A program made the translations under genes and the position numbers. A stretch of DNA of 40,067 bases, taken from Candidatus Methylomirabilota bacterium (GTDB taxonomy: Bacteria > Methylomirabilota > Methylomirabilia > Methylomirabilales > 2-02-FULL-66-22). The notes under the pieces are model-generated. The model was given only the letters and a program-made list of their open reading frames with translations, was not told the DNA's origin and did no database searches. Below, one piece after another: positions 7,105 through 40,048 of the stretch (positions within the stretch are counted from its first letter, which is position 1; every line of letters begins with the position of its first letter). The stretch is from NCBI GenBank assembly GCA_016180655.1, contig JACPAT010000026.1:1-40067 (forward strand), read 5' to 3'.

Positions 7105-7123
7105 GTCCGGAGCCGCGGAAACC

Positions 7124-18361: not shown

Positions 18362-19669
18362 ATGCAGCCTCTGACCTTCCGCCAAGTGGATCGTGACATC
18401 CTGCGGACCATGGAGCCGCCGGGGCGGCTCTACTATGGCCTGCTCGCCCTGGTCCTGGCTGTCATCCTCTGGGGCGTGTACGCCTGGTGGTACCAGATCC
18501 AGACCGGCTTGGCGGTCGCGGGCCTCAACAACCCCGTCGGCTGGGGCGCCTACATCACCAACTTTGTCTTCTGGGTGGGGATCGCCCACTCGGGAACGCT
18601 GATTTCGGCCATCCTGTACCTCTTTCGGGCGCGCTGGCGGACCGCGGTCTACCGCAGCGCCGAGGCCATGACGGTCTTCGCCATCATGACGGCGGGCCTG
18701 TTTCCCCTGATCCATCTGGGCCGGCCCTGGTACTTCTACTGGTTGCTGCCCTATCCCAACCAGCGGAACCTCTGGCCCAATTTCCAGTCGCCCCTCCTCT
18801 GGGACGTCGTCGCCATCGGCACCTACATGACGGTGAGCGTGACGTTCTTCTTTATTGGGCTCATCCCGGACCTGGCCACGGCGAGGGACCAGGCCACCGG
18901 CTGGCGCCGCCTCTTCTACGGCATCCTCTCGCTGGGATGGCGCGGCTCGGACCGGGAATGGCGGCACTACCGGAGCGGCTACTTGTTCTTCGCCGCCCTG
19001 GCCACCCCGCTGGTCGTCTCGGTTCACAGCGTCGTGTCGTGGGATTTCGCCATGTCCATCGTCCCCGGATGGCACAGCACCATCTTCGCCCCCTATTTCG
19101 TCGCCGGGGCGATCCACTCCGGCCTGGCCATGGTCATCACCATCCTCCTCCCGCTCCGCCGGATCTTCCGGCTGGAGGCCTACCTGCTTCCGCGCCACTT
19201 CGAGAACCTGGCCAAGCTGATCATCGTCACCGGCCTCATTGTCGGGTATGCCTACCTGGTGGAGTTCTTCCTGGCCTGGTACAGCGGCAATGTCTACGAG
19301 CATGCGGTCTTCCTGGATCGGGCCACCGGCCACTACGCCCCCGAGTTCTGGATCATGGTGACCTTCAACGCGGTGCTCCCGTTGCTCTTTTTCATCCGCA
19401 GGGTCCGGACGAGCCCCGCGTGGCTCGTCGGCATCTCTCTCGGGATCACTATCGGCATGTGGTTCGAGCGGTTCGTCATCATCGTGGCCTCGCTGGCCCA
19501 TTCCTACATCCCCTTCTCGTGGGGCCTGTACCGCCCCACCTGGGTGGAGCTCTCCATCACCGCGGGCAGCTTCGCCTGGTTCCTGTTCTGGTTCCTGCTC
19601 TTCGCGAAGTTCCTCCCCTCGGTCTCGATGACCGAGGTGAAGGAACAGATCCCGGAGGAGGCAGGATGA
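18362..19669 (+). CDS. actC: Alternative complex III quinol-binding subunit ActC (NrfD family)
   Basis: ITNFVFWVGIAHSGTLISAIL, RSAEAMT, IHLGRPW, SPLLWD, SVHSVVSWDF, GWHSTIF, GMWFERFVII. Confidence 0.95.
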   Translation: MQPLTFRQVDRDILRTMEPPGRLYYGLLALVLAVILWGVYAWWYQIQTGLAVAGLNNPVGWGAYITNFVFWVGIAHSGTLISAILYLFRARWRTAVYRSAEAMTVFAIMTAGLFPLIHLGRPWYFYWLLPYPNQRNLWPNFQSPLLWDVVAIGTYMTVSVTFFFIGLIPDLATARDQATGWRRLFYGILSLGWRGSDREWRHYRSGYLFFAALATPLVVSVHSVVSWDFAMSIVPGWHSTIFAPYFVAGAIHSGLAMVITILLPLRRIFRLEAYLLPRHFENLAKLIIVTGLIVGYAYLVEFFLAWYSGNVYEHAVFLDRATGHYAPEFWIMVTFNAVLPLLFFIRRVRTSPAWLVGISLGITIGMWFERFVIIVASLAHSYIPFSWGLYRPTWVELSITAGSFAWFLFWFLLFAKFLPSVSMTEVKEQIPEEAG

Positions 19670-20169
19670 TCCGGCCCGGCCTCGTGGGGATCTTCGCCGA
19701 CGGAGCGCAGGCCGCCCGGGCGATCGCCGCCCTCCGGCGCGAAGGTTTCGAGGGCTTCGAGGTCTATGGACCGGTCCCGCACCCGGCCGTCGAGGCGGCC
19801 CTGGAGGCGGGCGTGAGCCCGGTGCGACGGTATACCCTGGCGGGGGGCATCCTCGGCTGCGCGAGCGGATTCGCCCTCACGATCTGGACGGCGCTCCAGT
19901 GGAACCTGGTCGTGAGCGGCAAGCCCGTGGTGGCCCTCGTCCCCTTCGTGGTGATCGCCTTCGAGCTCACGGTCCTGTTCGGGGCGCTCGCCACGCTGCT
20001 GGGCGTCCTCGTCCACGCCCGGTTGCCGCGCCTTCGGCCGGAGGTCGGGCAGGATCCGCGTTTCACCGGGGATCGGTTCGGGATCCTGGTGTGGTGCGAG
20101 GGGGATCGCGCCGCGGCGGCCGAGGTGGGGCTCCGCCGGGCGGGGGCCGAGGAAGTGCGAAGTGTCTAG
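19666..20169 (+). CDS. actD: Alternative complex III subunit ActD (DUF3341)
   Basis: ATGA overlap with actC; EVYGPVP, WNLVVSGKP, FVVIAFELTVLFGA, DPRFTGDRFGI, GAEEV. Confidence 0.9.
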   Translation: MIRPGLVGIFADGAQAARAIAALRREGFEGFEVYGPVPHPAVEAALEAGVSPVRRYTLAGGILGCASGFALTIWTALQWNLVVSGKPVVALVPFVVIAFELTVLFGALATLLGVLVHARLPRLRPEVGQDPRFTGDRFGILVWCEGDRAAAAEVGLRRAGAEEVRSV

Positions 20170-21975: not shown

Positions 21976-22188
21976 CCGTCGGCGAATGCCGTGCGCGGCC
22001 GGTTTTCCCGCTCTCGGGCGTTGCGCGCATATTCCCGCAGCAACCGGTGCGGCAGACCAGTGTCATTGTCGTTACTGTCCCCCCGTTCCTCTTTGTGTAG
22101 TGTCGACCACCGAGCGGAGACGGCGACTGGCGCACCCTTCCTGCCGGAGAGACCCCCGGCCGGTTGGGGTGCGCCACTGGTGGGCTCG

Positions 22189-24894
22189 ATGGCTTCTCTC
22201 TTGCGGGCAATCACCTGCTCCGGGTGGGTGACACCATCATGGCTCCTGTGCATCATCCCCTGGCTCCAACTTTCTGGCGGTCTCCTGGCCTTCCTGCTCA
22301 TCGCCCTCTTCGGCACCATCCATAGCGAGCTCGGCCACCAGATCTCCGCGGGGGAGAGTCCGGCCCTGGCGTGGGCTAGGATCCATGTCGCCGGAGTCCT
22401 TGGGGGTGGCCTCGCATATCTCGCCGTGGCCTCGGCGCTGCAGGCCCTGGCCCTGCGGCAGGCTGGCCGTCCCGCGGCCCGAGGAATGAACCTCCTGGCG
22501 GCAATGGAACTGGTGGCGGTGGCGTCACTGGGCCTGGCGTTTCTGCGCCAGTGGGATGGCGTGGTCCCCTGGGGGCACACCCTGCTTCAACTCTCCTTGC
22601 TGCTACAGGCCCTCGTGCTCCTCTGCCGCTCGGGGCCCCATGAGATCACCTTCCCCGCGGGCCTGCGCGGAGGGGGCCACGGCCTGTTCCTCACGTTGGT
22701 CTTCCTGCTGGCCGCAGTCCCGGGGTACCTGGATCCCTCCTGGCACCGGCTGCGTGAGCACGTGCAGCTCGATTCCGGGCGGGACATCTTTTGGAGTCGC
22801 GTCCTGCCCATGCTGTTCTCCGGGGTGACTGGCCTGTGGCTCGGCAGCGGGGTCCTGGCAATCCTGGCCGGGTGCCGGCGTCTCGCGATGAGGCCGGGCA
22901 TCTCGCCACGGGCGGCGGGGACGATCTCGTTCCTGCCGTTCCTCTCCATCGCGGTCCTCTTCGGGGCGGTGGGGCTGCTCCCTCTGTTTCAGTCCATGGA
23001 GTGGGAGCTCGGCGCCCTCCGGCTCGGGGGCGCCGTGCCGCCACTTTTCCTCCTCCTTTCCGGAGGTGGCGGAGCCTTGTGTTGGCTGGCCTTTCGCCGG
23101 TTGGTGCCGCACGCACCTGGGGCCCGGGGAGAGCTCGTCATCGGCATGGCGGCGCTGGCGATGGGAGGAATGCTGCTTCTGCCGATCACGTGGCTTCTCA
23201 TCCGCCCGGGCTCCGGCTGGCGCTCCCGGCGGTGGCTCCAGGTGTTCTCTCTGCTGGGGAGCCTCGGCCTGGCATACGTCGTCTTGTACGGGAACCTCTT
23301 CGATCCCTGGTTCACCGTCTTCTCCTACCTGAAAGGGGGGATCCTGAAGTTCGTGGCCGTGGTGGTGGCGGGGATCCTGACCATGCTGATCAGGGAGAGC
23401 CAGACCAACGGAACGCGTCCGTCAGAGGCGAAGACCAGGTGGATGCCCGTCGCCGCCGCGTGCCTGGCGGGGGTTATCCCGTTCGCGGCCCTGGAGAGAG
23501 GCCGGGATACCAAGGTCGCCGTTTTGCAGTTCAACGAGCTCAGCATGGTGGACGCCACCTATGCAAGGCTGGCAGCCAGGGTCCTGGGCCTGGAAGGCTG
23601 GATTCGCCTGGGGCAGAACCCCGCGCCCAGGGGTCGGCCGGAACCCTGGCCCCACCCCTGGTCCCTGCAGAGGAACGGCCTCTTGCGCCTCCCACGGGAC
23701 TTCAATCTCCTGGTGATCGTGGTGGACGCCCTGCGGGGGGATGCTTTTGGCTCGGCAGGGTACCATCGGGACCTCACCCCTTTCCTGGACCGGTGGGCCC
23801 GGGAGGAAGCCGTGTCCTTCCGACGGGCCTACAGCCAGGGAGGGGGAACCTTCGCCGCGTATCCCTTCCTGGTCGGCGGCCGGAGCCGGTTCACTCTGTA
23901 TGGGGCTGAGCTCCACCGGGAGAATCTCTACTTCAAGCTTTCCCAGGCCGAGGGGATCCGGCACGTCATGGTGGTCAAGGAGTTCGGGCCCAGGGAAATC
24001 TTCCCTCCCGATTTCCCCGTCATCGAACTGGGCGGTCCGGGTGCGCGTGCCGCCGGGCGGTCTGTTCCGGCGGAGACGGTCTTCGGCCGGGTCCGCGAGG
24101 CCATCGGCGCGCTCTCCAAAGGGGAGAGGTTCTTCGCCTTCCTCCACCTGATGGATGTGCACAGTGTGCTGTGGAAGAAGCCGGAGTGCGTGGACTTCGG
24201 CGACACGCCGAGGGACCTGTACGACAACAACCTGGCCTGTCTGGACAAGGCCTTGGAACGTTTCGTGACCTGGCTCAAAGCGCAGGGAATCTATCAGCGA
24301 ACCGTCATCGTCTTCACTGCGGATCATGGTGAGCAGTTCTGGGAGCACGGGGCCAGTTTGCACGGCCACACCCTGTACGAGGAAGAGATCCACATCCCCC
24401 TGATCCTCCTGGCTCACGGCGTGCGCGGGCGGGTGGAGGACGTGCCGGTGCTGGCGGCGGATATGGCGCCTACCGTGGCGGAGCTGGCGGGCTACTCGGT
24501 CCGCCCTCCCTACGACGATCCCCGAATGGGAATCTCCCTCGTCCCGCTCCTGCTGGGGGAGGAGAGGGAAAGGTATCGGAAGCGGGATGTTGTAGGACGG
24601 GCCTCCTTCAAACGGCGGTACTTCCTCTACCGGGACTGGGAGTGGAAGCTGGTCTATTCCGCCGACTTCGATCTCTTACAGCTCTTCAATACGGCCCGGG
24701 ACCCGTGGGAGAGGAGGAATCTCCTCCGGGAGGAACCGACTCTGGCGGCGGAACTGGAACGGGAGCTCCTGGGATACCTGGAGAGGATCGAGGGGAAGTC
24801 CTACCGGCCCCTGCTTTCCCAGGCGACGAACGGGGGCGGGCTATCGGGCAGGGCACAGCGGCAGCCCCGGTTCGCGGGCGTCCGGGAGCGATGA
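22189..24894 (+). CDS. Polytopic membrane protein with C-terminal sulfatase-like (alkaline phosphatase superfamily) domain
   Basis: Many N-terminal hydrophobic helices; IVVDALRGD, AYSQGGGT (Thr at the nucleophile position), HLMDVH, TADHGE, HGHTLYEEEIHIPL; start uncertain (ORF open from 21991). Confidence 0.8.
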   Translation: MASLLRAITCSGWVTPSWLLCIIPWLQLSGGLLAFLLIALFGTIHSELGHQISAGESPALAWARIHVAGVLGGGLAYLAVASALQALALRQAGRPAARGMNLLAAMELVAVASLGLAFLRQWDGVVPWGHTLLQLSLLLQALVLLCRSGPHEITFPAGLRGGGHGLFLTLVFLLAAVPGYLDPSWHRLREHVQLDSGRDIFWSRVLPMLFSGVTGLWLGSGVLAILAGCRRLAMRPGISPRAAGTISFLPFLSIAVLFGAVGLLPLFQSMEWELGALRLGGAVPPLFLLLSGGGGALCWLAFRRLVPHAPGARGELVIGMAALAMGGMLLLPITWLLIRPGSGWRSRRWLQVFSLLGSLGLAYVVLYGNLFDPWFTVFSYLKGGILKFVAVVVAGILTMLIRESQTNGTRPSEAKTRWMPVAAACLAGVIPFAALERGRDTKVAVLQFNELSMVDATYARLAARVLGLEGWIRLGQNPAPRGRPEPWPHPWSLQRNGLLRLPRDFNLLVIVVDALRGDAFGSAGYHRDLTPFLDRWAREEAVSFRRAYSQGGGTFAAYPFLVGGRSRFTLYGAELHRENLYFKLSQAEGIRHVMVVKEFGPREIFPPDFPVIELGGPGARAAGRSVPAETVFGRVREAIGALSKGERFFAFLHLMDVHSVLWKKPECVDFGDTPRDLYDNNLACLDKALERFVTWLKAQGIYQRTVIVFTADHGEQFWEHGASLHGHTLYEEEIHIPLILLAHGVRGRVEDVPVLAADMAPTVAELAGYSVRPPYDDPRMGISLVPLLLGEERERYRKRDVVGRASFKRRYFLYRDWEWKLVYSADFDLLQLFNTARDPWERRNLLREEPTLAAELERELLGYLERIEGKSYRPLLSQATNGGGLSGRAQRQPRFAGVRER

Positions 24895-25865
24895 AGGAGC
24901 TTCCCATGCGTGGCCGGTGGCAGGCGATGGGGGGCCTGGTTCTGCTCCTGGCGGGGTGCGCCGGGACCGCAGGGATGGAGGGCGTGGTGGCCCTCATCCC
25001 CACGGGACAGTGGCCGGAGGATGTGGTCTTCGACGCGGAGACCCAGACCATCTTCGTCGCCGACGAGGGCAGCGCCACGGTCACGGCCATTGACGCCGGG
25101 AGCCGCACGGTCCGCGGGACGATTCGCCTCCAGACCCGCGCGCGGCACCTCGCCGTTGCGGCTGGACGACTCTACGCGCCGAATGAACACAGCCAGTTCG
25201 TCGGGGTCTATGATGCCAGGACCCTGGGCGAGATCGGCCGCTTGGCCGTGGGAGGACAGCCGCACGGCCTGGCGGTGGACGCCTCGCGAGGACGGCTCCT
25301 GGTGGGCAACGAGGAGGACGGGACGGCGACCCTGGTGGACACGACGACGCTCCGGCCGATCGCCGTGATCCCCGTCGGCCGGGGGCCGGGAGGCGTGACC
25401 GCCGATGTCGGAAGCGGCCGGGGGTTTGTGGTCAGCGTGAAGGAGGACCGGGTGACCGCGGTGGACCTCACCACAGGAACCATCCTGGGAAGCCTGCCCG
25501 TCGGGGCCGGGCCCACGCATCTCCGGGCCAATTCCCGGACGGGGCTGGTGTACGTCTGCAACACGGAGGCGGACAGCCTCACCGTCCTGGATGGTCGGGC
25601 GCTCGCGGTCCGGGCCACCATCCCGGTGGGCCGCTATCCGTTTCCCATCACGATTGAGGAGGCGCGCGGGCGTGCCTTCGTGGTGAACAGCCGGGACGCA
25701 ACGCTCTCCGTGATCGCGGAGGAGAGTCTCCGGGTGATGGAGACCCGCCCCATCCCCCGCAATGTCTCCAGCTTGGCCGTGGATCCCGCCCGCGGGGTTC
25801 TGTACCTTGCCCTGAAGAGCGACAATCGCCTGGCCATCCTTCCCGCGCCAGGGACTCGACCCTAG
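24891..25865 (+). CDS. YncE/YVTN-type beta-propeller lipoprotein
   Basis: Lipobox LLAGC; ~7 repeats of I/VPVGxxPxxxxV...YVxN; ATGA overlap with the upstream gene (alternative start ATG 24906). Confidence 0.85.
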   Translation: MKELPMRGRWQAMGGLVLLLAGCAGTAGMEGVVALIPTGQWPEDVVFDAETQTIFVADEGSATVTAIDAGSRTVRGTIRLQTRARHLAVAAGRLYAPNEHSQFVGVYDARTLGEIGRLAVGGQPHGLAVDASRGRLLVGNEEDGTATLVDTTTLRPIAVIPVGRGPGGVTADVGSGRGFVVSVKEDRVTAVDLTTGTILGSLPVGAGPTHLRANSRTGLVYVCNTEADSLTVLDGRALAVRATIPVGRYPFPITIEEARGRAFVVNSRDATLSVIAEESLRVMETRPIPRNVSSLAVDPARGVLYLALKSDNRLAILPAPGTRP

Positions 25866-26022: not shown

Positions 26023-26301
26023 ATGGGTGACGAAGAGAAGCGCGGCATTTTCGGCTCGCTGAAGGACAAGTTCAAGGACTACATCTACGGCATGGCGGCG
26101 CACGAGATGACCCGCCAGGCCCTGAAGACCCGCGGGAGCATGGAGCACCTCTTCATCCTCATCACCATGGGCGACCTCTTGGGGGTGCCCATCCTGCCGC
26201 CGTACTACTCCCTGCGGCTGCTCCCCTACGTGGTGCCGCAGATCTCCACGTGGAAGCGGCGCATGCTCCGCGAAAAGGACCTGACCGACGCCTTGGCCTA
26301 G
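26023..26301 (+). CDS. ArsA/Get3-associated small membrane protein, paralog A
   Basis: SD GGAGG; hydrophobic hairpin LFILITMGDLLGVPILPPYYSLRLLPYVVP; strong paralog at 29453-29728. Confidence 0.88.
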   Translation: MGDEEKRGIFGSLKDKFKDYIYGMAAHEMTRQALKTRGSMEHLFILITMGDLLGVPILPPYYSLRLLPYVVPQISTWKRRMLREKDLTDALA

Positions 26302-26353
26302 CGCCTGACCGGCAGCGCATCCCTCTCGATCCTTCCGACGGAAAGGACCAGGC

Positions 26354-27340
26354 ATGAACGGGGGACTCGGCCGCATCTTCAAGGAGCACCCGGACCGACG
26401 CTACATCATGTTCGGCGGCAAGGGCGGCCTGGGCAAGACGACCTTTTCGGCCGCCACGGCCTACTACCTGGCCCAGCAGGGACACCGGGTCCTGGTCTTC
26501 TCCGTGGACCCCCAGGCCTCCCTCTCGGACATCTTCCAGCGGGACATCTTCGGCAAGGGCCCCGTGGAGATCCTGCCCAACCTTTACGCGCAGGAGATCG
26601 ACGCCGACAAGCGCATCAAGGCCTACCAGGAGGAGATCCGCAAGAAGATCTTCGACATGTACGGCTTCGACAAGATCCCCGACGAGATCGAGAGCTACAT
26701 CCAGGCCGCCGCGGCCGAGCCGGCCATGGAGGAGAGCGCCATCTTCGACGAGGTGGTGGACATCGTGGTTGCCGGGAACTACGACTATTACATCTACGAT
26801 CTGGTGCCGCTGGGCCACGCCCTCTACTACCTCTCCATGGCCAGCGTCTACGACGAGTGGATCGAGCGGATCACCAAGCTCCGCGAGGACATGCGCCAGT
26901 ACGAGGAGATGGCCGCCGCCATCGGCAAGGACAAGGAGCTGGAAGAGGACATGATCCTCAAGGAGCTCCAGTACATCAAGCACCGGATCAGCACCTCCTC
27001 CGGCATCCTCACGGACCGGGAGAAGACCGCCTTCTTCTTCGTGATCATCCCCGAGGAGATGATCCTCATAGACACCCAGAAGGCGGCCCAGCTCTTCGCC
27101 AAGTTCAACGTGCCACTCAGCGGGTATGTCGTCAACCGCGTCATCCCCGAGAGCCTGGCGAGCCAGGACATCCCCGAGTACCTGCGCAACCGGCTCCAGA
27201 TGCAGAAGGGCTACCTGAAGAAGATCCAGGAGCTGTTCGGAAACGAGGTGCTGGCCCAGGTCCCGGAGTTCGAGCGCGACATCACCGGCCTTCCCATGAT
27301 CCAGAAGATGGCCGAGGCCATGTTCGGGACGGGCCGCTGA
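26354..27340 (+). CDS. ArsA/Get3(TRC40)-family ATPase, subunit 1
   Basis: Deviant Walker A GKGGLGKTT, switch I SVDPQASLSD, altered switch II DLVPLGH, VVNRV; no cysteine in the protein. Confidence 0.93.
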   Translation: MNGGLGRIFKEHPDRRYIMFGGKGGLGKTTFSAATAYYLAQQGHRVLVFSVDPQASLSDIFQRDIFGKGPVEILPNLYAQEIDADKRIKAYQEEIRKKIFDMYGFDKIPDEIESYIQAAAAEPAMEESAIFDEVVDIVVAGNYDYYIYDLVPLGHALYYLSMASVYDEWIERITKLREDMRQYEEMAAAIGKDKELEEDMILKELQYIKHRISTSSGILTDREKTAFFFVIIPEEMILIDTQKAAQLFAKFNVPLSGYVVNRVIPESLASQDIPEYLRNRLQMQKGYLKKIQELFGNEVLAQVPEFERDITGLPMIQKMAEAMFGTGR

Positions 27341-27373
27341 GGCCCCCGCACCTTCGCCCGGGAGTGTGATCCC

Positions 27374-28378
27374 ATGACTCAGCAGACAGGGCTGCATCCG
27401 CTGGTCCAGGAGAACATGCGAGGCTTCCTGGAGAAGCATCCGCACCTGAAGTACAACTTCTTCGGCGGAAAGGGCGGCGTGGGCAAGACAGTGCTAGCCG
27501 GCGCTTCGGCCCTGGCCTTCGCCCGACTGGGGAAGCGGACCCTGCTGGCCTCCACCAACCCGGTTCACAGCCTCAGCGGCCTCTTGAGCCAGAACGTCTT
27601 CGGGCAGGTGGTCCAGGTGACCGGGGTGCCGAACCTTTTTGCGTACGAGATCGATACCAAGGATACCATCGAGAAGTCCAAGCAGGAGATCAAGGAGAAG
27701 GTGAGCTGGTTCCTCAAGTTCGCCGAGATCCGGACGCAGGCGGACGCCTTCGTCGAGTCGGCCACCATGAACCCGGCCTTCGAGGAATCGGCCATGTTCG
27801 AGAACATGATTGACATCATGTTCAAGGACGAGTACGAGGTCTACGTCTTCGACACCGCCCCCACCGCCAACGCCCGCCGCCTGCTGGGCATGTCCTCGGT
27901 CTACTCTCTCTGGGTCGGCAAGATGATGAAGAGCCGGGAGGAGGCCCAGTCCCTCCGGCAGGTCCTCTCCTACAGCAAGAAGAAGGAGGAGAAGGACCCG
28001 CTCATGGACTACCTCCTCTCTTTCCAGCAGCGCATGGCCCACGCCAAGGAGCTGCTCACCGACGCCCAGAAGACGGCCTTCTTCTTCGTGACGCTCCCGG
28101 AGGCGCTGCCGATCGCGGTGATCACGCGCTTCATCGCCTGGTTCAAGGAGTTCGGGATTCCCGTGGGCGGCGTCGTGGTCAACATGCTGATCGACAAGGC
28201 CCAGGTGCGCGCCGACTCACCCGAGTTCGTGCGCAACCGCGTGGCCATGCAGGAAGCCTACATGGAAGAGATCAAGTCGGACTTCCCGGGGATGGTGCGC
28301 GCCGTCCTGCCCCTCTTCGAGACCGAAATCCGGGGCGTGGAGATGCTCAAGCGGACGGCCGATGCCCTCTATTGCTAG
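27374..28378 (+). CDS. ArsA/Get3(TRC40)-family ATPase, subunit 2 (switch I Asp to Asn)
   Basis: GKGGVGKTV, STNPVHSLS, DTAPTAN, VTLPE, VVVNM; the only Cys is the terminal residue. Confidence 0.93.
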   Translation: MTQQTGLHPLVQENMRGFLEKHPHLKYNFFGGKGGVGKTVLAGASALAFARLGKRTLLASTNPVHSLSGLLSQNVFGQVVQVTGVPNLFAYEIDTKDTIEKSKQEIKEKVSWFLKFAEIRTQADAFVESATMNPAFEESAMFENMIDIMFKDEYEVYVFDTAPTANARRLLGMSSVYSLWVGKMMKSREEAQSLRQVLSYSKKKEEKDPLMDYLLSFQQRMAHAKELLTDAQKTAFFFVTLPEALPIAVITRFIAWFKEFGIPVGGVVVNMLIDKAQVRADSPEFVRNRVAMQEAYMEEIKSDFPGMVRAVLPLFETEIRGVEMLKRTADALYC

Positions 28379-28452
28379 CCGTCAACCGCCAGCTCAGGCA
28401 CGACGAGCGGCCCCGTGTGGGCCGCTCGTTTTTTCAGTGAACCGCCGAGTGG

Positions 28453-28618: not shown

Positions 28619-29287
28619 TCAGCGCCCGGGTCCGCGGGGCAGGACGGTCTGGGCGAGCTGTGACAGGGTGGCGAAGATCGGGAGGGGGGTTCGGGTCTCG
28701 GTCGCCGGGACCGGAAGACTGAGGATCAGGTGCGGGGCCTCGAGTTGCAGGCCGACGCGCCAGACATCCATCCCCCCGATGGCGCTCATGACCGCCCGCG
28801 CCAGCGCTCGCCCGTCGGCGTCCGGGCCGGCGCAGAGCAGGGGCGGCCGCCCGGCCAGCGGCTCCTCACGCCAGCCCTTTTCCCGGATGTCATGAGCGAC
28901 CTGGGTCGCGCCGCGCCTCCTGGGGTGGTACACCTCGAAGCTGGCGCCGACGCGGCCGTTCAGGGTCACGCCGATCACCAGCCAGTCGCGTCGTCCACCC
29001 AGCCGGCCAAAGGCCCAGAGGAAGAAGGTCTCCCGGGGCTCCAGCAGGACGCTGATGCCCAGCCGGACGAAGGGGGGCGTCAGTTGCTCCGCCTCGATCC
29101 GGAAGGCGCTCCGCCCGATCCAGCGGATGGTGGCGGTCCCGCCGAAGGGCTGGATGGAGTCGCGCACCTGCCGCACCAGCGTCACGGCCCGCCGGCGGTT
29201 GACCTGGATCCCCGCGACGTACCACATCAGCAGGAAAGCTGCGAGGCCGATGGCCAGGTCGGTGCCGGTGAGTCCGCGATCGAACAT
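28619..29287 (-). CDS. N-terminally membrane-anchored protein with CCDC47/DUF1682-like motifs
   Basis: Single N-terminal TM (LAIGLAAFLLMWYVAG) followed by YxxGxxxNxRxA and R-x15-DxxxIxVTLN motifs; family call made from memory. Confidence 0.7.
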   Translation of the reverse strand: MFDRGLTGTDLAIGLAAFLLMWYVAGIQVNRRRAVTLVRQVRDSIQPFGGTATIRWIGRSAFRIEAEQLTPPFVRLGISVLLEPRETFFLWAFGRLGGRRDWLVIGVTLNGRVGASFEVYHPRRRGATQVAHDIREKGWREEPLAGRPPLLCAGPDADGRALARAVMSAIGGMDVWRVGLQLEAPHLILSLPVPATETRTPLPIFATLSQLAQTVLPRGPGR

Positions 29288-29452: not shown

Positions 29453-29728
29453 TCATCCGGCGCCCGCGAGGTCGGTGAGGTCCTTTTCCCGCAGCATCCG
29501 GCGCTTCCAGTTGCTGACGGCGGGGACGATGTACGGGAGAAGCCGGAGGGTGTAATAGGGCGGGATCACCGGGACGCCGACGATGTCGCCGAACACGATG
29601 AGCACGAAGAGATGTTCCAGATCCCCGCGCTGCTTCCGGAACATCACGACGGCATCATGCAGGGCCATGCCGAAGAGGAAGCCGCGGAACCACTCCCGCC
29701 AGCCCCCCAGCCACTCCCTGAAGCTCAT
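29453..29728 (-). CDS. ArsA/Get3-associated small membrane protein, paralog B
   Basis: Shares EHLF.L...GD..GVP..PPYY.LRLLPY.VP....WKRRMLREKDLTD with 26023-26301; SD GAGGAAGGA. Confidence 0.88.
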   Translation of the reverse strand: MSFREWLGGWREWFRGFLFGMALHDAVVMFRKQRGDLEHLFVLIVFGDIVGVPVIPPYYTLRLLPYIVPAVSNWKRRMLREKDLTDLAGAG

Positions 29729-29839: not shown

Positions 29840-30673
29840 TCATCCCTTGACCGCCCCGAAGGTGAGGCCGGTCACGATGTGCCGCTGCACGATCAGCGTG
29901 AGGATGATGACCGGCAGGGTGATCATCGTGGCGGCGGCGGCCAGGGGCCCCCAATTGATCTCCTCGTAGCCGATCATGTTGAAGACGGCGATGGGCAGGG
30001 TCCGGGTGTTCCGGCCGGCCAGGATCACCGAGAACAGGAAGTTGTTCCAGGAGAAGATGAAGCTCAGGATGGAGGTCGCCACGATCCCCGGCTTCACCAG
30101 GGGCACCGCCACCCGCCAGAAGGCCCCGTAGTGGGAGCAGCCGTCAATCAGCGCCGCGTCCTTCAGCTCCGGCGGGATGTCCTCGAAGAACCCGATCATG
30201 ACCCAGATGATGATGGGCAGGCCCACCACCAGGTGGGTGAGGATGAGCGCCTGGTAGGTGTCCACCATGCGGAGGTTCCGGAACAGGATGTACCAGGGGA
30301 TCAAGTAGCTGATCCCGGGGATGATGCGGGCGACCAGCATGGTGAGGGCCAGGCCGCGCTGCCGCCAGTGGGCGATGCTGTAGGCCGCCGGCAGCCCGAC
30401 CGCCAGGCCCAGTACCGTGCATCCCACGGCCACGACCAGGCTGTTCCAGGTGTAGAGCAGGAACGGATGCTTGGCGAAGACCTCCTGGTACCCCTTGAAG
30501 GTGACGGAGAAGCGGAAGAAGCTCGGGGGGTATCCCGCCGCCTCCACCTGCGGCTTCAGGGAGAGGGTGATCATCCAGTAGAAGACGAAGACCGTGGGCA
30601 GCATGACGGCGATCACCAGGGCGTAGAACCCCGCCGTCCGGAGCCAGTTCCGCAGCCTTTTCCCGGTCACCAT
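29840..30673 (-). CDS. Carbohydrate ABC transporter (CUT1) permease, MalG-type
   Basis: WNSLVVA, AAYSIA, EAA loop ELKDAALIDGC, FIFSWNNF, TLPIA, QRHIVTGLTFGAVKG. Confidence 0.93.
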   Translation of the reverse strand: MVTGKRLRNWLRTAGFYALVIAVMLPTVFVFYWMITLSLKPQVEAAGYPPSFFRFSVTFKGYQEVFAKHPFLLYTWNSLVVAVGCTVLGLAVGLPAAYSIAHWRQRGLALTMLVARIIPGISYLIPWYILFRNLRMVDTYQALILTHLVVGLPIIIWVMIGFFEDIPPELKDAALIDGCSHYGAFWRVAVPLVKPGIVATSILSFIFSWNNFLFSVILAGRNTRTLPIAVFNMIGYEEINWGPLAAAATMITLPVIILTLIVQRHIVTGLTFGAVKG

Positions 30674-30826
30674 CCGACCCTCCGGGTATCCATTATTCGG
30701 GGCCCATCCCCCGGGATTTTCGATTTTGGATTGCGGATTTCCGATTGCTCAAAATCGACAATCGAAAATCGACAATCGAAAATTGGATCGGGTCCCTCCC
30801 CCTGGCATCACCATCCGACCCTCCGG
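30667..30826. repeat. 19-bp direct repeat flanking a palindromic heptamer insertion
   Basis: TCACCATCCGACCCTCCGG at 30667-30685 and 30808-30826; between them GATTTTC GATTTTG GATTGCG GATTTCC GATT / AAAATCGACAATCG x2. Confidence 0.85.
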
Positions 30827-31632
30827 ACCTTCATGAGGATGAGGGAGGCCCCCATGACGATGGCGAACAGGGCCACCGCCATGGACGAGGCGTAGCCCAT
30901 GTTGAAATACGAGAAGGCCTGGTTGAACAGCAGGATGTTGATGGTCTCGGAGGAGTTCGATGGCCCTCCCTGCGTCATGACGAAGATGATGTCGAAGGTC
31001 TTCAGGGCGTCAATGGCGCGGAACAGGATGGCCACGATGATCGTCGGTCGCAGGAGGGGGAGCGTGATGTACCAGAATGACTGCAGGCCCGTGGCCCCGT
31101 CAATGAGGGCGGATTCGTACGGCTCCCTCGGCAGGGCCGCCAGACCCGCCAGGGCGATGAGCATGATGAGCGGGGTCCACTCCCACACGTCCACCAGCGC
31201 CAGGGCGTACAGGGCCGTCCGGCTGCTGTAGGTCCACTTGAACGGGGCCAGGCCGGTCAGGCTCACCAGGTAGTTCATCACCCCCAGCGTCGGGTGGTAC
31301 ATCATGACGAAGACCTCCACCGACACCGCCAGAAAGGTGAAGTAGAGCGTCCGGAAGAACGCCTCCCGGAACCTGGGGTCTCCCGTCAGGATCTGCTGAT
31401 AGTTGGCGAGGGCGATGAACTTGGGCAGGGTCAGGCTCGAGGCGAACCATTCCTGGAGGCTCATCCAGCCGGTGTACAAGACCGGGTAGATGATGATGAG
31501 CGCCACCGTGATGGCGGCCGGGGCGGGAAAGAGAAAGCGCGCGTTCCGGTGGGCGAACCGCGACAGGCGGACGCCGACGCCCAGGGCCGGCTCGGGGGCG
31601 GACAGTCGAACGGCGTCAGTGGAATTGGGCAT
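30808..31632 (-). CDS. Carbohydrate ABC transporter (CUT1) permease, MalF-type, with apparent in-frame internal deletion
   Basis: LANY, DVWEWTP, EAA loop YESALIDGA, DALKTFD, TQGGP, MGYASSMA; the usual LG..ALLL...GR..RT...PM segment is missing. Confidence 0.85.
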   Translation of the reverse strand: MPNSTDAVRLSAPEPALGVGVRLSRFAHRNARFLFPAPAAITVALIIIYPVLYTGWMSLQEWFASSLTLPKFIALANYQQILTGDPRFREAFFRTLYFTFLAVSVEVFVMMYHPTLGVMNYLVSLTGLAPFKWTYSSRTALYALALVDVWEWTPLIMLIALAGLAALPREPYESALIDGATGLQSFWYITLPLLRPTIIVAILFRAIDALKTFDIIFVMTQGGPSNSSETINILLFNQAFSYFNMGYASSMAVALFAIVMGASLILMKVRRVGW

Positions 31633-31733
31633 CTGTCGGGCCGCCTCGTCTCCTCCCGCGAAAAGAGCCCGGCCCTCCCGCCACATCGAGGACGATGGGG
31701 GGGAAGGCCAGGCTCTTCCGCGTGGCAGGTGGG

Positions 31734-33089
31734 CTATTTCTCGGTCTTGTCCAAGAGTTCCTGGAATTCCTTGTGGGCCTGGGCGATGACCGTCTCGGAC
31801 TTGGCCCCTTCGATGGCCTTCTGGATCGCGACGCCGATGATGTCGCGATACTGCGTGACGTCAATGATCTCCGGGAGGCCGGCGCGGCCGACCTTCAGGC
31901 TCTCCAGGTACGCGGCGTACCAGTCGGCCGGCATCTTCGGCTTGGCCTTCACCTCGGGGTTGTTCCAGGGCGTGACGCGGCCGACGCCCACGCCCGCCAG
32001 CAGCTCGCGGGCCGCATTCTGCTTGTTGGTGGCCCACTGGATGAACAGGAAGGCCGCCTCCTTGTTCCGGCTCTGGGAGGTGATGGACATGGCATTGGTG
32101 AAGGTCGGGGCGACGTGGGCGGCCGGACCCGCGGGAAGCACCGCATACCCGACCTTGCCCGCGATCTTGGACTTGCCGGGGTCCTCGAACTGGTTGGCGA
32201 AGTTCACCCCGTCGTAGTAGATCCCCACCTGGCCCTGCATGAAGGCGGCGCTGCTTTCGTACCAGTTGAAGTTGACCACGCCGGGGGGGCCGAAGCGCCG
32301 GAGCATCCCGGCGTACCAGTCCATGGCCTTGACCCACTGGGAGGCGTTGAGGGCGGACTTCCCGTCCTTGGTCAGGTACTCCCCGCCCATCGAGTAGATC
32401 ACCCAGGCCCAGGGCGTGGCATTGGCGTTCTTCAACCCGCGCGACACGAAGCCGTACATGCCGGGCGGGTTGTGGAGCTTCTGGGCCTGCTCCTCCAGCT
32501 CCGCCATGGTCTTCGGCGGTTTCCATCCCTTCTGCTGATACAGGTCCTTGCGGTAGAAGAGCACGAAGGGGTCCACGAAGGTGGGGAGCCCGCTGATGGT
32601 CCTGTCGGGCTGGGTCACGTCTGCCCGAGCCCCGGTCGTGAAGTCGTTCCAGTCATAGTCCGGAGCCGTCAGGCTCTTGTCCTCCAAGAATTTGTTCAGC
32701 GGCTGGAACCAGCCCGACTTCCAGGCCCGCCGCTTCTCCACATGCATGCTGGCGTGCCAGGCGTCGATCCCGCCGGCGCCGGCCGTCATCTCCACCGTGA
32801 ACTTCTGGCGCCCCTGCACCTCCGGCAGGACCTCGTACTTGACCTTGATCCCGGTGAGGGATTCAAACTCCGGGATGTGCTTGACCATCTCGTCCACCCA
32901 GGGGTGCTTGTAGAGGAGCAGGAAGAGTTCCTTCCCCTTGAAGCGCTGCCAGTTGAAGGTCTGGCCGTGCCCCGGCGTGGCGATGAAGGGACCGATCGCC
33001 GCTCCGGCGGCGACGGTCGCCCCCAGCCTGAGTACCTCCCGACGGGTCATCCTGTGGGTGCTCGGAACCTTCTGCCGTGGCTTGTTCAT
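31734..33089 (-). CDS. Tat-exported sugar ABC transporter substrate-binding protein
   Basis: TRREVLRLG Tat motif; FESLTGIKV, LFYRKDL, PKTMAEL, FMQGQVG, VGYAVLPAGP; SD GGAGGAGG. Confidence 0.92.
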   Translation of the reverse strand: MNKPRQKVPSTHRMTRREVLRLGATVAAGAAIGPFIATPGHGQTFNWQRFKGKELFLLLYKHPWVDEMVKHIPEFESLTGIKVKYEVLPEVQGRQKFTVEMTAGAGGIDAWHASMHVEKRRAWKSGWFQPLNKFLEDKSLTAPDYDWNDFTTGARADVTQPDRTISGLPTFVDPFVLFYRKDLYQQKGWKPPKTMAELEEQAQKLHNPPGMYGFVSRGLKNANATPWAWVIYSMGGEYLTKDGKSALNASQWVKAMDWYAGMLRRFGPPGVVNFNWYESSAAFMQGQVGIYYDGVNFANQFEDPGKSKIAGKVGYAVLPAGPAAHVAPTFTNAMSITSQSRNKEAAFLFIQWATNKQNAARELLAGVGVGRVTPWNNPEVKAKPKMPADWYAAYLESLKVGRAGLPEIIDVTQYRDIIGVAIQKAIEGAKSETVIAQAHKEFQELLDKTEK

Positions 33090-33140
33090 ACGGACCTCCT
33101 CCCCTCCCAAATTGGTTTCCAGTGGCGGGATGCCGGGGTG

Positions 33141-33170
33141 AACGTATTCCAGTCCCAATATCCCTGTCAA
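33141..33170 (-). promoter_or_regulatory. Putative sigma70 promoter of the ABC operon
   Basis: TTGACA-N18-TACGTT. Confidence 0.55.
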
Positions 33171-33226
33171 GCCTCTCGTGGGGCCGGGTGTCCCGGCCGG
33201 GGCCGCATGGAGAACGTGCCGGCCCA

Positions 33227-34144
33227 TCAGCCCAGGCTCCGCTCCAGTTCCAGGACGCGGCCCACCAGGCTGGTGGCGATTCGCTGCTGCACGTCGTCGA
33301 ACCGCAGGATCGGCTCGCGCACGGCGTGGGTGCGGAAGACGCCCTTGGCCACCAGCACGCGCTTGAAGAACTGGATGGAGATGTCGATGTGCTGGTTGGC
33401 AAAGGCCAGGATGGGCAGCAGCCGTTCGAAGAGGTGCCGGGCGCCCTCCCGGTCCCCCGCCCTATGCCGGGCCATGATCGCCCGGTAGATGGCGACCATG
33501 CTGCCCTCCGGCATGAGGGCGTGGACGCCGCGCTCCAGCCCGTCCAGCATCTGGGTCACGGCCCACCCGCCCGAGACGTGCAGGCGGCCGCCGGTGGCCG
33601 CCAGGATCCGGGAATACTTGGGGCCGGCCGGCGCCGTCTCGACCTTGATGCCGCGAAAGGTGGGCAGCTCCTCGAACAGCTCGCAGATGAGTGCCAGGTC
33701 CATCCCGCCCCCGCGCCAATCCAGGTCCTGGATCATGAGCGGCAAGTCCACGCCGCGGGCCAGGGTTCGGAAATACGCCCGGAGCTGGCCGCTGTCGGTC
33801 CCCATCGCTTCCGGCGCCTGGGCCAGGATTCCGGTGGCCCTCCGGGCCTGGGCGTGGCGGGCCAGGGTCAGGCTTTCCTCGGCACTCCCCGTGCTCACAC
33901 CCACGATAACCGGGACCCGCCCCCGGACGTGATCCAGCACGACTTCGACCGTGTCCTGCCGCTCCGCAGGCGTCAGCTTGTGGACCTCACTCGCCACCGC
34001 CGGATAGATGACGCCCACGGCTCCTGCCTGGATGACGTGGTCCACGAGTCTGTGGAGTGACAAGGGATCCACTCTCCCGTCCTCCCCAAAGGGTGTCTGG
34101 AGGATCGGGACGATACCGTCGAGGACGTAGCGGGTCTTCCCCAT
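33227..34144 (-). CDS. DapA-superfamily enzyme, 2-keto-3-deoxy sugar-acid dehydratase-like
   Basis: GIVPILQTPF, AVASE in place of GxxGE, MIQD (Gln instead of the catalytic Tyr), Schiff-base GIKVE; start ATG 34144. Confidence 0.8.
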   Translation of the reverse strand: MGKTRYVLDGIVPILQTPFGEDGRVDPLSLHRLVDHVIQAGAVGVIYPAVASEVHKLTPAERQDTVEVVLDHVRGRVPVIVGVSTGSAEESLTLARHAQARRATGILAQAPEAMGTDSGQLRAYFRTLARGVDLPLMIQDLDWRGGGMDLALICELFEELPTFRGIKVETAPAGPKYSRILAATGGRLHVSGGWAVTQMLDGLERGVHALMPEGSMVAIYRAIMARHRAGDREGARHLFERLLPILAFANQHIDISIQFFKRVLVAKGVFRTHAVREPILRFDDVQQRIATSLVGRVLELERSLG

Positions 34145-34149
34145 CGCCT

Positions 34150-35436
34150 TCAGCTCTGAAAGCCGACCAGCCGGGGCAGGAAGAGCACCAGGCCCGGCAC
34201 GTAGGTAATGAGGAACAGGACGGTGATCAGCACCCACAGGAAGGGCATGACCTCGCGGATGACCAAGCCCAGGGGGGTCTTGGTAAGGCCGCTCACCGTG
34301 AAGAGCAGCATGCCGTAGGGCGGTGTGCAGAGCCCGATCATCATGTTCAGGACGATGACCACCCCGAAATGCACCAGGTCAATGCCCAGGGCCCGAACAG
34401 CCGGGAGGATCATGGGGATCACAACCAGCATCAGGATCATGGTGTCCAGGAAGCATCCCAGAATGAGAAACAGGATGTTCAGGAGCAGGAGGAGAACGTA
34501 GGGGTTCGTCGTCATGGACACCACGCCCGTGGCGATCCGGTTGGAGATACCCTCCAGGGTCACGACGTAGCTGAAGGCGAAGGCCCCGGCGATAATGAAA
34601 GTCAGGAACCCCACGTTCTCTACGGTGGCCACCATCTCGCGGTACAACCCCCGGAGTCCCATGTCCCGGTACACCAGGACGGCCAGGAGCATGGCGTACA
34701 GGGCGGCGGCCGCGCCGGCCTCCGTCGGCGTAAAGACACCCGAGTAGATCCCCCCCAGGAGGATGACCGGCGTCATCAGCGAGAGGAATGCCTGGGCAAA
34801 GGCCCGGCAGAGGGCCCGAAAGCCCTGCCACGTGCCCACGGGGTAGCTGCGCCGCCTCGCCACGGCCGCGATATACCCCATCATGGCCCCGCCCATGAGC
34901 AGCCCGGGGATCACCCCGCCGAGGAACAGGTTCCCCAGGGAGGCCCCCGAGAGCATGGAGAAGATCACCATGGGGATGGAGGGGGGGATGATGGGTCCGA
35001 TGGTGGCAGTGGCGGCCGACACAGCGCAGGCGAAGGGGCGCTCGTAGCCCCCGTCCTCCATGGACTTGATCTCCATGAGGCCGAGGCCGGAGGCATCCGC
35101 CAGGGCGGATCCCGTCATGCCGGAGAAGATGATGCTGCCCACCACGTTCACGTGGGCCAGCCCGCCCCGAAGGAACCCGACCGAGCTATCGGCGAAGTTG
35201 AAGATCCGCGTGGTGATGCCCCCGATGTTCATGACCCGGGCCGAGAGCACGAAGAGGGGGATCGCCAGGAGCACGAACTGGTTGTCGAAGCCGATCACCA
35301 TGGTCTCTACCACCTCTTGCAGGGTGATCCCCTTGGCGAGGAAGTAGACGCTGGTGGAGACCACCATCCCCAGGGCGATGGAGCCGCGGAACAGGAAGAA
35401 GAGGATGAAGGTAACCACCCACAGGGTGACGGCCAT
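34150..35436 (-). CDS. dctM: TRAP transporter large permease DctM
   Basis: LLAIPLF, GGLAHVNV, FSGMTGSALADA, IIPPSI, GVFTPTEA, GLCTPPYG. Confidence 0.95.
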   Translation of the reverse strand: MAVTLWVVTFILFFLFRGSIALGMVVSTSVYFLAKGITLQEVVETMVIGFDNQFVLLAIPLFVLSARVMNIGGITTRIFNFADSSVGFLRGGLAHVNVVGSIIFSGMTGSALADASGLGLMEIKSMEDGGYERPFACAVSAATATIGPIIPPSIPMVIFSMLSGASLGNLFLGGVIPGLLMGGAMMGYIAAVARRRSYPVGTWQGFRALCRAFAQAFLSLMTPVILLGGIYSGVFTPTEAGAAAALYAMLLAVLVYRDMGLRGLYREMVATVENVGFLTFIIAGAFAFSYVVTLEGISNRIATGVVSMTTNPYVLLLLLNILFLILGCFLDTMILMLVVIPMILPAVRALGIDLVHFGVVIVLNMMIGLCTPPYGMLLFTVSGLTKTPLGLVIREVMPFLWVLITVLFLITYVPGLVLFLPRLVGFQS

Positions 35437-35437
35437 G

Positions 35438-35959
35438 TCACGATTCCCCGGTCCGGGTGCCCCGCCAGTCCCGCACGGCCCCTGCCGCCAAGTGGCCGAT
35501 CATGAGGACGATGCTTACAAGGTACACGAGCACCAGGAAACTCCAGGGGATGTGGAGCGAGGCAGATCGCATGATATGGCTCTGGCGCATGAACTGGATG
35601 CCCGGCACGATCAGCGTGGCCAGGACAGCGGCGCCGAATACCCGGAGACCCGCTGACAGCACCCGCTGGACCGGCACCGGCAGCGCATTGAACAGGACGT
35701 CAAAGGCCACGTGGGAGTCGTGGCGCGCCGCCAGGGCTGCCCCCAAGTAGATGAGGCAGATGTACATATAAATGGACAGCTCGAAGGGCCAGACCAGCGG
35801 CGTGAAGAGATACCGGAAGATGACCTGAACGACGATGGAAACGAACATCACCGCCAAGGCCAGGACACCGCAGGTTTCCTCGAGCAGGCGGATGATCCGA
35901 TCCAGGGCTCCCCCCACGACGGATTTCTCCTGAAAAGAACCGGGGGGTGAGGCAATCAC
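35438..35959 (-). CDS. dctQ: TRAP transporter small permease DctQ
   Basis: QVIFRY, WPFELS, YLGA, HVAFD; four TM; start uncertain. Confidence 0.88.
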   Translation of the reverse strand: MIASPPGSFQEKSVVGGALDRIIRLLEETCGVLALAVMFVSIVVQVIFRYLFTPLVWPFELSIYMYICLIYLGAALAARHDSHVAFDVLFNALPVPVQRVLSAGLRVFGAAVLATLIVPGIQFMRQSHIMRSASLHIPWSFLVLVYLVSIVLMIGHLAAGAVRDWRGTRTGES

Positions 35960-35985
35960 CCCCCGGTTCCGCGCGGCCGATCAGG

Positions 35986-36978
35986 TCACGGGCTTGACTG
36001 GATCTTCTCGTAGACCCCGGCGCCCCACTTGGCCTCGAACTCCTTGTAGGCGGGGCGGGCATTCTGCCGCCAGGGTTCCAGATCGGGATAGATGATCTTG
36101 AGGCCGTACTGCTTCTCGAACTTCTCGAGGAGCGTGGCCTCCCCCTCTAGGACGAGGTAGTTCATGTAGTTGCGCGCCGTCATCAGCGCCGTGTGCATCC
36201 AGACCTTGTACTCGGCCGGCATCCCCTGCCAGAGCGGCTCATGGATGATGGGCCAGAGCTGGCCGATCTGGTGGTTGGTCATGATGATGTACTTCGTGAC
36301 CTCGTAGAACTTAGCCGCCTCGTTGGTCGGCAAGGGGTTGTCCTGCCCGTCCACGGTCCCGGTCTTCAGGGCCAGGTACAGCTCCCCGAAGCCCAGGGGG
36401 GTCGGGTTGGCGCCCAAGGCCTTGCCCATGGCGATCCACATGGGGGCGTTGGGAACCCGGAGCTTGACGTCCTTCATGTCCCCCGGCTTGGTGACCGGCT
36501 TCGTCCGCAGGTTGAGGTTGCGGGTCCCGAGGTACCACACGTCCAGCGGACGGATGCTGGTCTTCTTGGCCAGCGTCTCGAAGTACTGCCGGCCCATGGG
36601 ACCGAGCAGGACCCGGTACATGTGATCCAGGTCCCGGAACAGGTAGGCGGCCGCGAACACGCCCACTTCCGGGTCGAAATCCGACAGCCAGGTGCCATCG
36701 GCAAAGGACATCTCCAGCGTTCCCCGCTGGACCTTGGTCACCTGGGTCTTCTGGTCGCCGAGCTGACCCGAGTGGAACAGGCGGACCTTGATCTTGCCGG
36801 CGCTCAGGGCCTCCACGTTCTTGGCGAAGACCTCCATGGCCTTGTACTCGGGCTGCGTCGGCACCCCCACGGTGTTGAATTTCAGCTCATAGGTGGGCTC
36901 TCCTGCCAGAGCCGGCGCCACGACCCACAAGCCTCCCACGAGGACCAGCACACCCGTCCACATAGCGATGCGTTTCAT
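35986..36978 (-). CDS. dctP: TRAP transporter substrate-binding protein DctP
   Basis: Signal peptide; GQLG, YLGTR, KLRVP (carboxylate-binding Arg), ELYLALKTGTVDGQDNP, FYEV; SD GAGGAGG. Confidence 0.93.
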   Translation of the reverse strand: MKRIAMWTGVLVLVGGLWVVAPALAGEPTYELKFNTVGVPTQPEYKAMEVFAKNVEALSAGKIKVRLFHSGQLGDQKTQVTKVQRGTLEMSFADGTWLSDFDPEVGVFAAAYLFRDLDHMYRVLLGPMGRQYFETLAKKTSIRPLDVWYLGTRNLNLRTKPVTKPGDMKDVKLRVPNAPMWIAMGKALGANPTPLGFGELYLALKTGTVDGQDNPLPTNEAAKFYEVTKYIIMTNHQIGQLWPIIHEPLWQGMPAEYKVWMHTALMTARNYMNYLVLEGEATLLEKFEKQYGLKIIYPDLEPWRQNARPAYKEFEAKWGAGVYEKIQSSP

Positions 36979-37050
36979 GACCCTCCTCCTTTCCCCGGCG
37001 GTCCGGCCCGCAGAGCGCCGGCCACCCGGGCTTTCCCTCCTCCGGATAGT

Positions 37051-37079
37051 AACGTATCCCGCCTCTGCCGACTTCGCAA
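37051..37079 (-). promoter_or_regulatory. Putative internal sigma70 promoter for the second TRAP/dehydratase unit
   Basis: TTGCGA-N17-TACGTT. Confidence 0.5.
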
Positions 37080-37144
37080 GCCATGGTTTCGCGGCCCGGA
37101 CCCTCCTGGGGGATCCGGGGGTCAATCCCGGCCGCAGCGCGCCC

Positions 37145-38904: not shown

Positions 38905-38917
38905 CGGACAGGCCCTC

Positions 38918-39901: not shown

Positions 39902-40018
39902 GACAGCGACCTCCTTTCCCCGTGGACAGATCGTGCGGTGCATTCCTCTCATCGTGGGTGGCGGGAGCCTATCACGAAACCATTGCGGCGCAAATCGTGA
40001 GGCGCGGGGATTTTTGGC

Positions 40019-40048
40019 TTGACACACCATACGGACGTATGGTAGGCA
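40019..40048 (+). promoter_or_regulatory. Palindromic operator within a putative divergent promoter
   Basis: TTGACA (40019-40024) followed by perfect ACCATACG-GA-CGTATGGT (40026-40043). Confidence 0.55.

Follow-up and report, generated by a model that had tools for sequence, protein, structure and literature searches.

Work on ATPases of the Get3/ArsA family has dealt with symmetric homodimers and with fused pseudo-dimers. The two halves of the fused Escherichia coli ArsA are not equivalent, and the mycobacterial proteins BagA and BagB reportedly form a heterodimer, for which we know of no DUF7990, CstA or CCDC47-fold partners. The present analysis concerns two adjacent genes of this family, here called A1 (26,354–27,340, + strand, 328 amino acids (aa)) and A2 (27,374–28,378, + strand, 334 aa), in a 40,067-nucleotide (nt) stretch of a Candidatus Methylomirabilota bacterium assembly (GCA_016180655.1, contig JACPAT010000026.1, positions 1 to 40,067; the window in what follows). 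Both were identified from the list of open reading frames (ORFs), Pfam and TIGR00345; they lay exactly where a preliminary description of this DNA had placed them, with intact frames. A1 appears to be catalytically complete, and A2 is a paralogue with Asn at the position of the catalytic Asp. We consider it probable, though well short of certain, that the two products are the unequal subunits of a single Get3/ArsA-type ATPase dimer belonging to a CstA-associated module.

The gene arrangement with which the locus is best compared was described by Castillo and Saier in 2010 (PMC2963123) as operons of the permease CstA, a ~90-aa CstX with one transmembrane segment (TMS), sometimes a ~210-aa one-TMS CstY, and single-domain ArsA homologues of ~330 aa. 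In the same account no arsenic genes were present, adjacent pairs of ArsA homologues occurred in two organisms, CstY was seen in archaea only, and the Asp of the SxD motif was replaced by Asn only. The ATPase was proposed to energise CstA; the paper contains neither the word heterodimer nor a proposal of a dead site. The window shares with these cstA–cstX–(cstY)–arsA clusters the single-domain ArsA homologues of ~330 aa, a small protein of ~90 aa and the lack of arsenic genes, whereas cstA, adjacent there, lies here on another contig (C315). A literature search, with subscription journals mostly outside its coverage, returned no paper on this pair besides the 2010 analysis, and in the literature searched the module is known only by gene-context description.

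Four better characterised systems offer further points of comparison. In E. coli ArsA, two homologous halves, each binding nucleotide, make up one functional pseudo-dimer (PMC2963123), but they are fused, and the protein is activated by metalloids via three Cys and encoded in ars operons, whereas A1 and A2 are separate genes without those Cys. Archaeal Get3 (M. jannaschii 3ug6/3ug7 and M. thermautotrophicus 3zq6) has in common with A1 and A2 the deviant Walker A motif, the A-loop and a helical region whose insert is about as long; it is, however, the product of one gene with STDPAHS, DTAPTGH and a Cys pair, in contrast to the two unequal genes of the window, where the Cys pair is missing and one subunit carries Asn. 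In yeast Get3, D57N replaces the switch I residue at which A2 naturally has Asn; D57N was, however, made in the laboratory and inactivates both sites, whereas here one site would be naturally dead and switch II is changed too. Lastly, BagA and BagB of M. tuberculosis (Rv3679/Rv3680) are likewise encoded by two adjacent Get3/ArsA-like ATPase genes (PMC10597346), but the likeness is distant, and the match of the PDB entry 6bs3 (BagA) to A1 (E = 4.6e-7) is confined to the P-loop.

The Pfam model ArsA_ATPase (PF02374) matched A1 with 245 bits (E = 1.3e-72) and A2 with 219.9 bits (E = 6e-65; cut-off 24.3), and TIGR00345 (GET3_arsA_TRC40) covered both over their full length with 236.7 and 216.2 bits, respectively (cut-off 135); by these profiles A1 and A2 clearly belong to the Get3/ArsA family. 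The best solved matches by sequence, again over the full length, were archaeal Get3 chains (3ug6, E = 1.4e-62 for A1 and 4.9e-51 for A2). More specific models scored far lower: the ArsA equivalog TIGR04291, with its cut-off of 650, gave A1 and A2 only 101 and 105 bits (101–138 bits across TIGR04291 and NF041417, the latter with a cut-off of 800), the BagA/BagB models NF053622 and NF053621 gave 29–48 bits (cut-offs 400 and 521), and the Get3d/NosAFP model NF050088 gave 52.9 and 65.7 bits (cut-off 325). An arsenic pump was rejected as a reading of the locus on the grounds of these ArsA scores, of the single-domain architecture of A1 and A2, of the absence of metalloid-binding Cys and of the lack of any ars gene among the window ORFs scanned.

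The same genome contains a third Get3/ArsA paralogue of 314 aa (contig C310, L001:1453–2397, − strand), which carries SSDPAHS, DTAPTGH and a CLFC Cys pair and adjoins genes for an HSP20-like protein and a Cdc48-type AAA ATPase; the same arrangement was seen in a second genome (G079; 87% and 74% identity).

The active-site motifs were GGKGGLGKTT, FSVDPQASL and IYDLVPLGH in A1, and GGKGGVGKTV, ASTNPVHSL and VFDTAPTAN in A2, so that both the ORF translations and the alignments bore out the reading of SVDPQ/DLVPLGH and STNPVH/DTAPTAN in the preliminary description. When A2 was aligned with 3ug6 (M. jannaschii Get3), its Asn fell under the catalytic switch I Asp of STDPAHS, and DTAPTAN under DTAPTGH. 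This Asp (D57 in yeast) is described as priming the attacking water (PMC10248533), and yeast Get3 D57N as binding ATP without hydrolysis and staying closed (PMC12506534); these papers back the likening of A2 to this mutant, also made earlier. A1 retained the Asp residues of switch I and Walker B, the two Walker A lysines, the Thr, and Pro, Gly and His in switch II, departing from DTAPTGH at three non-catalytic positions only, and A2 had lost the switch I Asp and the switch II Gly-His. The degeneracy of the motifs had been called complementary, which was an overstatement and tells against the preliminary description: judged by these residues it is one-sided, with every catalytic residue kept in A1 and only A2 degenerate. 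Among 43 A2 orthologues, K33, G34–T39, N62, D160 (Walker B), N270 (the adenine Asn), and P313 and G321 (A-loop) were invariant, a pattern that reads as the signature of a site still binding nucleotide but not built for hydrolysis.

With no Cys in A1 and a single one in A2, its last residue, the two proteins lack both the CxxC of Get3 and the metalloid-binding Cys of ArsA, as had been claimed. The position of the archaeal Cys pair is occupied by DIPEYLRNR in A1 and DSPEFVRNR in A2 (aligned region PE(Y/F)(L/V)RNR); CxxC is also missing from some accepted Get3 proteins (PMC10248533). A further claim, that the helical regions are rich in Met, held in part. Met was moderately raised, at 13 of 328 residues in A1 (4.0%) and 16 of 334 in A2 (4.8%) against a background of 2.68% in 19 Pfam-supported ORFs of the window, and it was clustered (6 of the 13 in residues 102–200 of A1, 9 of the 16 in residues 132–221 of A2), with many Met, among them several of the clustered ones, invariant among orthologues; the same 19 ORFs ranged from 0.7 to 5.6%. 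As regards a client groove of the Get3 kind, what was observed, from sequence alone, are these conserved Met clusters.

The closest homologues of A2 (75–96% identity) had STNPVHS and FDTAPTAN in 120 out of 120 cases. A scan of relatives, with one genome kept per species, yielded 79 loci spanning NC10/Methylomirabilota, many Chloroflexota, Syntrophaceae and other deltaproteobacterial bins, Burkholderiaceae, Candidatus Hakubella and others. Complete calls of 300–360 aa were retained (68 of 73 A1 hits and 74 of 77 A2 hits) and aligned together with the window's own proteins. Across these aligned orthologues from several phyla, switch I carried Asn in 75/75 A2 and Asp in 69/69 A1 sequences; switch II was DTAPTAN in 74/75 A2 and D-L-(V/A)-P-L-G-H in 68/69 A1 sequences, the odd A1 row looking frameshifted; and the deviant Walker A motif with its signature Lys was GGKGGLGKT in 69/69 A1 and GGKGGVGKT in 74/75 A2 sequences. 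Asp at the A2 position, named beforehand as the finding that would speak against the preliminary description, was found in 0/120 closest homologues and 0/75 aligned orthologues. To judge from these alignments, the motifs vary hardly or not at all among the orthologues examined, which is far beyond chance. Mean column identity was 74% for A2 versus 80% for A1, meaning that the two proteins are about equally conserved.

The Asn extended to more distant A2-like representatives (P0130, P0131, P0153 and P0124; 40–51% identity), and an A1-like partner of divergent A2-like proteins (P0196) kept DPQAS and D..P.GH. A divergent pair in another genome (G071, ~45% identical) showed the same division, with FSTDPQAS and FDMPPFGH in its A1-like member and ASLNPVHS and FDTAAVAN in its A2-like member. 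One of the distant representatives, P0124 (326 aa, 51% identical to A2), combined the Asn with a decayed P-loop (GGKSSVGNTG) and may represent, in one lineage, a subunit that is dead altogether.

In a quick maximum-likelihood tree built from 53 proteins, all A1 sequences formed one clade (SH-aLRT 100) and all A2 sequences grouped with the divergent A2-like proteins (SH-aLRT 100); the A1 and A2 sides were sisters (SH-aLRT 99), apart from the canonical single-domain homologues. On this topology A1 and A2 evidently arose by one old duplication. NC10 sequences joined the same Chloroflexota subgroup on both the A1 and the A2 side of the tree. A canonical-looking sister of the A1 clade (P0151) was also used to scan metagenomes, and the only good locus returned (L088) was an ordinary two-ATPase module.

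A complete A1 was located upstream of A2 in 66 of the 67 loci with at least 1100 nt of upstream sequence; the 67th (L035) had an A1 hit whose start was not callable. The A1 stop and the A2 start overlapped by 4 nt (ATGA) in 35 of the 66. Within a sample of 151 genomes of the phylum, an A1-type gene (at least 60% identity) was present in 23 published genomes and adjoined by an A2-type hit on the same contig in 22 of them, the A2-type hit of the exception (G083) being at the edge of another contig. Taken as gene order, these data leave little doubt that A1 and A2 have been inherited side by side, often with translational coupling. A search for natural fusions among longer proteins found both motif sets only in three single-member ORFs (P0270, P0272 and P0146), which were rejected as Rosetta-stone fusions since their alignments break at the junction, like frameshift joins; a fourth candidate (P0271) was rejected as A2 plus unrelated sequence.

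A single-ATPase version of the module was identified in a genome of the same order (G124, L098:2681–6433). It comprises CstA, a small protein ending in CWCC (a cory-CC-star style ending), one ATPase and a 149-aa protein with an N-terminal hydrophobic helix. The lone ATPase is canonical (VSTDPAHS and FDTAPTGH), as sub-functionalisation after duplication predicts.

A stoichiometric A1–A2 pair with one non-hydrolysing but nucleotide-binding site would fit the adjacency and overlap of the genes, their origin as sister clades, the invariant pocket of A2 and the canonical motifs of the single ATPase. In such a pair, A1 and A2 would, like their relatives in the family, make an ATP sandwich, in this case a heterodimer; the A2 site would retain ATP without hydrolysing it, as yeast Get3 D57N does; and an open–closed cycle would be driven by turnover at the A1 site alone. 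More speculatively, the targets of this cycle might be the small DUF7990 proteins and, at the membrane, CstA, whose assembly or activity it would affect, and the 222-aa protein encoded nearby might be the membrane partner in it.

Two separate homodimers, with A1 as an active Get3-like ATPase and A2 as a non-hydrolysing, ATP-dependent holder or sensor, the two acting in sequence and not in one complex, appear to us unlikely but worth serious consideration: A1 lacks no catalytic residue, Get3 D57N homodimers are reported to be stable and closed (PMC12506534), and no fusion protein ties A1 to A2. Such an arrangement sits less easily with the 4-nt overlap in 35/66 loci and the adjacency in 66/67, which suggest equal dosage, or with the matching groupings of both clades, for example of NC10 with the same Chloroflexota subgroup. 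In addition, two-domain proteins among the family hits often had a variant switch II in one half, uneven pairs thus being common there.

A heterodimer without a dead site, in which Asn or another residue supports hydrolysis in A2 and the motif changes tune the rates, would account for the fully conserved nucleotide pocket of A2 and has a precedent in Get3d proteins, which still hydrolyse ATP in spite of unusual active sites (PMC10248533). We nevertheless regard it as quite improbable, given that the same substitution is described as blocking hydrolysis in yeast Get3 (PMC12506534), that A2 has also lost the switch II Gly-His, and that the decayed P-loop of P0124 suggests a site dispensable for catalysis. 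The idea that the Asn and the other variants stem from a lineage-specific mutation, a sequencing error or a decaying pseudogene is already refuted by the Asn being invariant in all orthologues examined from several phyla, by A2 being about as conserved as A1 and by the intact frames, and carries next to no weight.

Several observations weigh against A1 and A2 being the unequal subunits of one dimer with a single hydrolysing site. The homologue and orthologue sets overlap and their sequences are kin, so the counts given above overstate the independent support; the Asn might still permit slow hydrolysis in A2; and A1, lacking nothing, could work as a homodimer. No convincing natural A1–A2 fusion was found among the longer proteins searched, the contrast with a single-ATPase module consists of one locus (G124), and the link to CstA in this genome rests on homology with other loci only, cstA being on another contig. 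A complex prediction asking whether the small protein binds A1 and A2 with 2 ATP had a median of 0.41, but a control with A2 replaced scored higher (0.57), and the result counts neither for nor against.

The genes around the pair point to the wider module. Small protein 1, a DUF7990/CstX-like ORF of 92 aa (26,023–26,301, + strand), lies directly upstream of A1, so that a CstX-type ~90-aa gene stands beside the ATPase genes as in the published clusters, and a homologue of it was upstream of A1 in 61/61 loci with complete calls of all three genes. Its residues 36–92 were nearly invariant in 43 orthologues ranging from NC10 to Burkholderiaceae, its most hydrophobic 19-residue window begins at residue 43, and it resembled DUF7990 clusters in ESM Atlas features (0.97); the AlphaFold2 model (pLDDT 57.4, three helices) was too weak to use. 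A paralogue of 91 aa, small protein 2, is encoded upstream of the 222-aa gene (29,453–29,728, − strand). Both scored below the cut-off of 80 bits for the cory-CC-star model NF041419 (35 bits for small protein 1 and 39.8 bits for small protein 2). The module is often of a 2 + 2 composition, because two small paralogues were present in 47 of the 68 loci having any.

The 222-aa protein (28,619–29,287, − strand) has one N-terminal hydrophobic membrane helix, matched no Pfam or NCBIfam family, and had a homologue near the module in 20/79 loci. An AlphaFold2 model built with 16 homologues (pLDDT 89.4, pTM 0.83) matched, in Foldseek, 9i78_4 (E = 1.1e-8) and 7tm3_4 (E = 1.6e-8). VIA-align superposed the model on residues 135–400 of 7tm3 chain 4 with a Z score of 17.4 and a root-mean-square deviation of 3.4 over 215 of 222 residues, and gave Z scores of 14.8 for 9i78 chain 4 and 11.6 for 6w6l chain 7; TtfA and type III secretion chaperones were lower-scoring structural matches. 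A profile of the 222-aa family searched against PDB sequences returned chance-level hits only (E = 0.7). We infer that the matched chains are CCDC47 because of their residue ranges, a weak Atlas lead to CCDC47 (0.79) and the description of CCDC47 in the 6w6l paper (PMC7505659), where it is a translocon subunit with a large globular cytosolic domain. The 222-aa protein would share with CCDC47 (PF07946) the single membrane helix and the predicted fold, but without a sequence match, and the C-terminal coiled coil of CCDC47 is absent from it. By description, the protein also fits CstY.

The window contains no CstA. In most other lineages, CstA and a thioredoxin (Trx)-like gene directly precede the module: CstA was upstream of it in 42 and the Trx-like gene in 31 of the 79 related loci, many of which were too short upstream to tell. 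The CstA of this genome (581 aa; contig C315, L086:862–2607, − strand) is encoded near a contig end, apart from the ATPase module, beside a Trx-like protein of 127 aa with a CxxC motif (L086:412–795, − strand), and is 81% identical to the CstA directly upstream of the module in an NC10 relative (L015). On gene context and homology, A1–A2 is the ATPase pair of a cstA–cstX–(cstY)–arsA-homologue module, together with DUF7990 proteins and a putative CCDC47-fold protein, and not a free-standing Get3. This context was missed by the preliminary description and counts against its account of the pair.

Two readings of the function of the module can be put forward, the first being the 2010 proposal of an energiser or regulator of CstA, and the second a Get3-like device that handles small membrane proteins and aids CstA assembly. 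We lean towards the second, which is favoured, though not decisively, by how close the pair is to Get3, by its conserved Met clusters, by the tail-anchor-like layout of the DUF7990 proteins and by the predicted fold of the 222-aa protein. Taken to its furthest extent, and with considerable doubt on our part, the module could be a prokaryotic membrane-protein assembly machine, in which an uneven heterodimer with one catalytic site and a permanent ATP latch captures tail-anchor-like DUF7990 proteins and passes them to a CCDC47-like receptor, building or gating the many-helix CstA. It would then correspond, in bacteria and archaea, to parts of the eukaryotic GET and PAT/multipass-translocon systems, of which it might even be a forerunner.

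The module itself (2010) and the D-to-N change were already known; what appears to be new here is a Get3/ArsA pair of two uneven genes, one of them for a conserved subunit that looks non-catalytic. A natural two-gene pair with a D57N-type change in one subunit would be a ready-made system for asking how many hydrolysing sites the closing–opening cycle needs. The module occurs in several phyla, and its almost invariant small membrane protein and putative CCDC47-fold protein point to the handling of membrane proteins and not to arsenic export. Wherever a source gave a member of the A2 family a name, it was arsenite-transporting ATPase, arsenite/tail-anchored protein-transporting ATPase, arsenic transporter or ArsA family ATPase, and the present finding corrects the routine annotation of such genes as arsenite transporters.

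A terminator-like hairpin of 12 pairs (9 G-C) followed by a T run was located after A2 (28,402–28,430, + strand) by a consensus scan only, in which 3 such sites were found versus 2.6 expected in shuffles. In RNA libraries of four metatranscriptome studies, contigs with a likeness of 88% or more covered most of the stretch; they belong to relatives, and one of 3579 nt in X17 covered 26,059–28,338 with 213 differences. Contigs do not demonstrate a transcript, and DNA carry-over is possible, so this is no proof of expression.

The flanks of the module hold genes for a sulfatase-domain membrane protein, a beta-propeller, and ABC, TRAP and Tct transporters. The sulfatase domain belongs to a 967-aa ORF (21,991–25,865 region, + strand) whose N-terminal part looks hydrophobic from the translation. 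In the YVTN/NHL beta-propeller gene that comes next, the longest reading overlaps the sulfatase ORF by ~250 nt, and the true start is therefore probably further downstream. Neither of these two proteins had a match in any of the 79 related loci. Further upstream, two ORFs have domains of the alternative complex III type: a 975-aa ORF (15,421–18,348, + strand) has molybdopterin oxidoreductase and 4Fe-4S dicluster domains, and the ORF at 18,487–20,169 (+ strand) matches the alternative complex III subunit ActD. Uptake systems are dense at 5136–8107, 29,840–33,227 and 34,150–40,030, and include TctA/TctC, an ABC permease pair with a binding protein, and two TRAP DctM/DctP sets.

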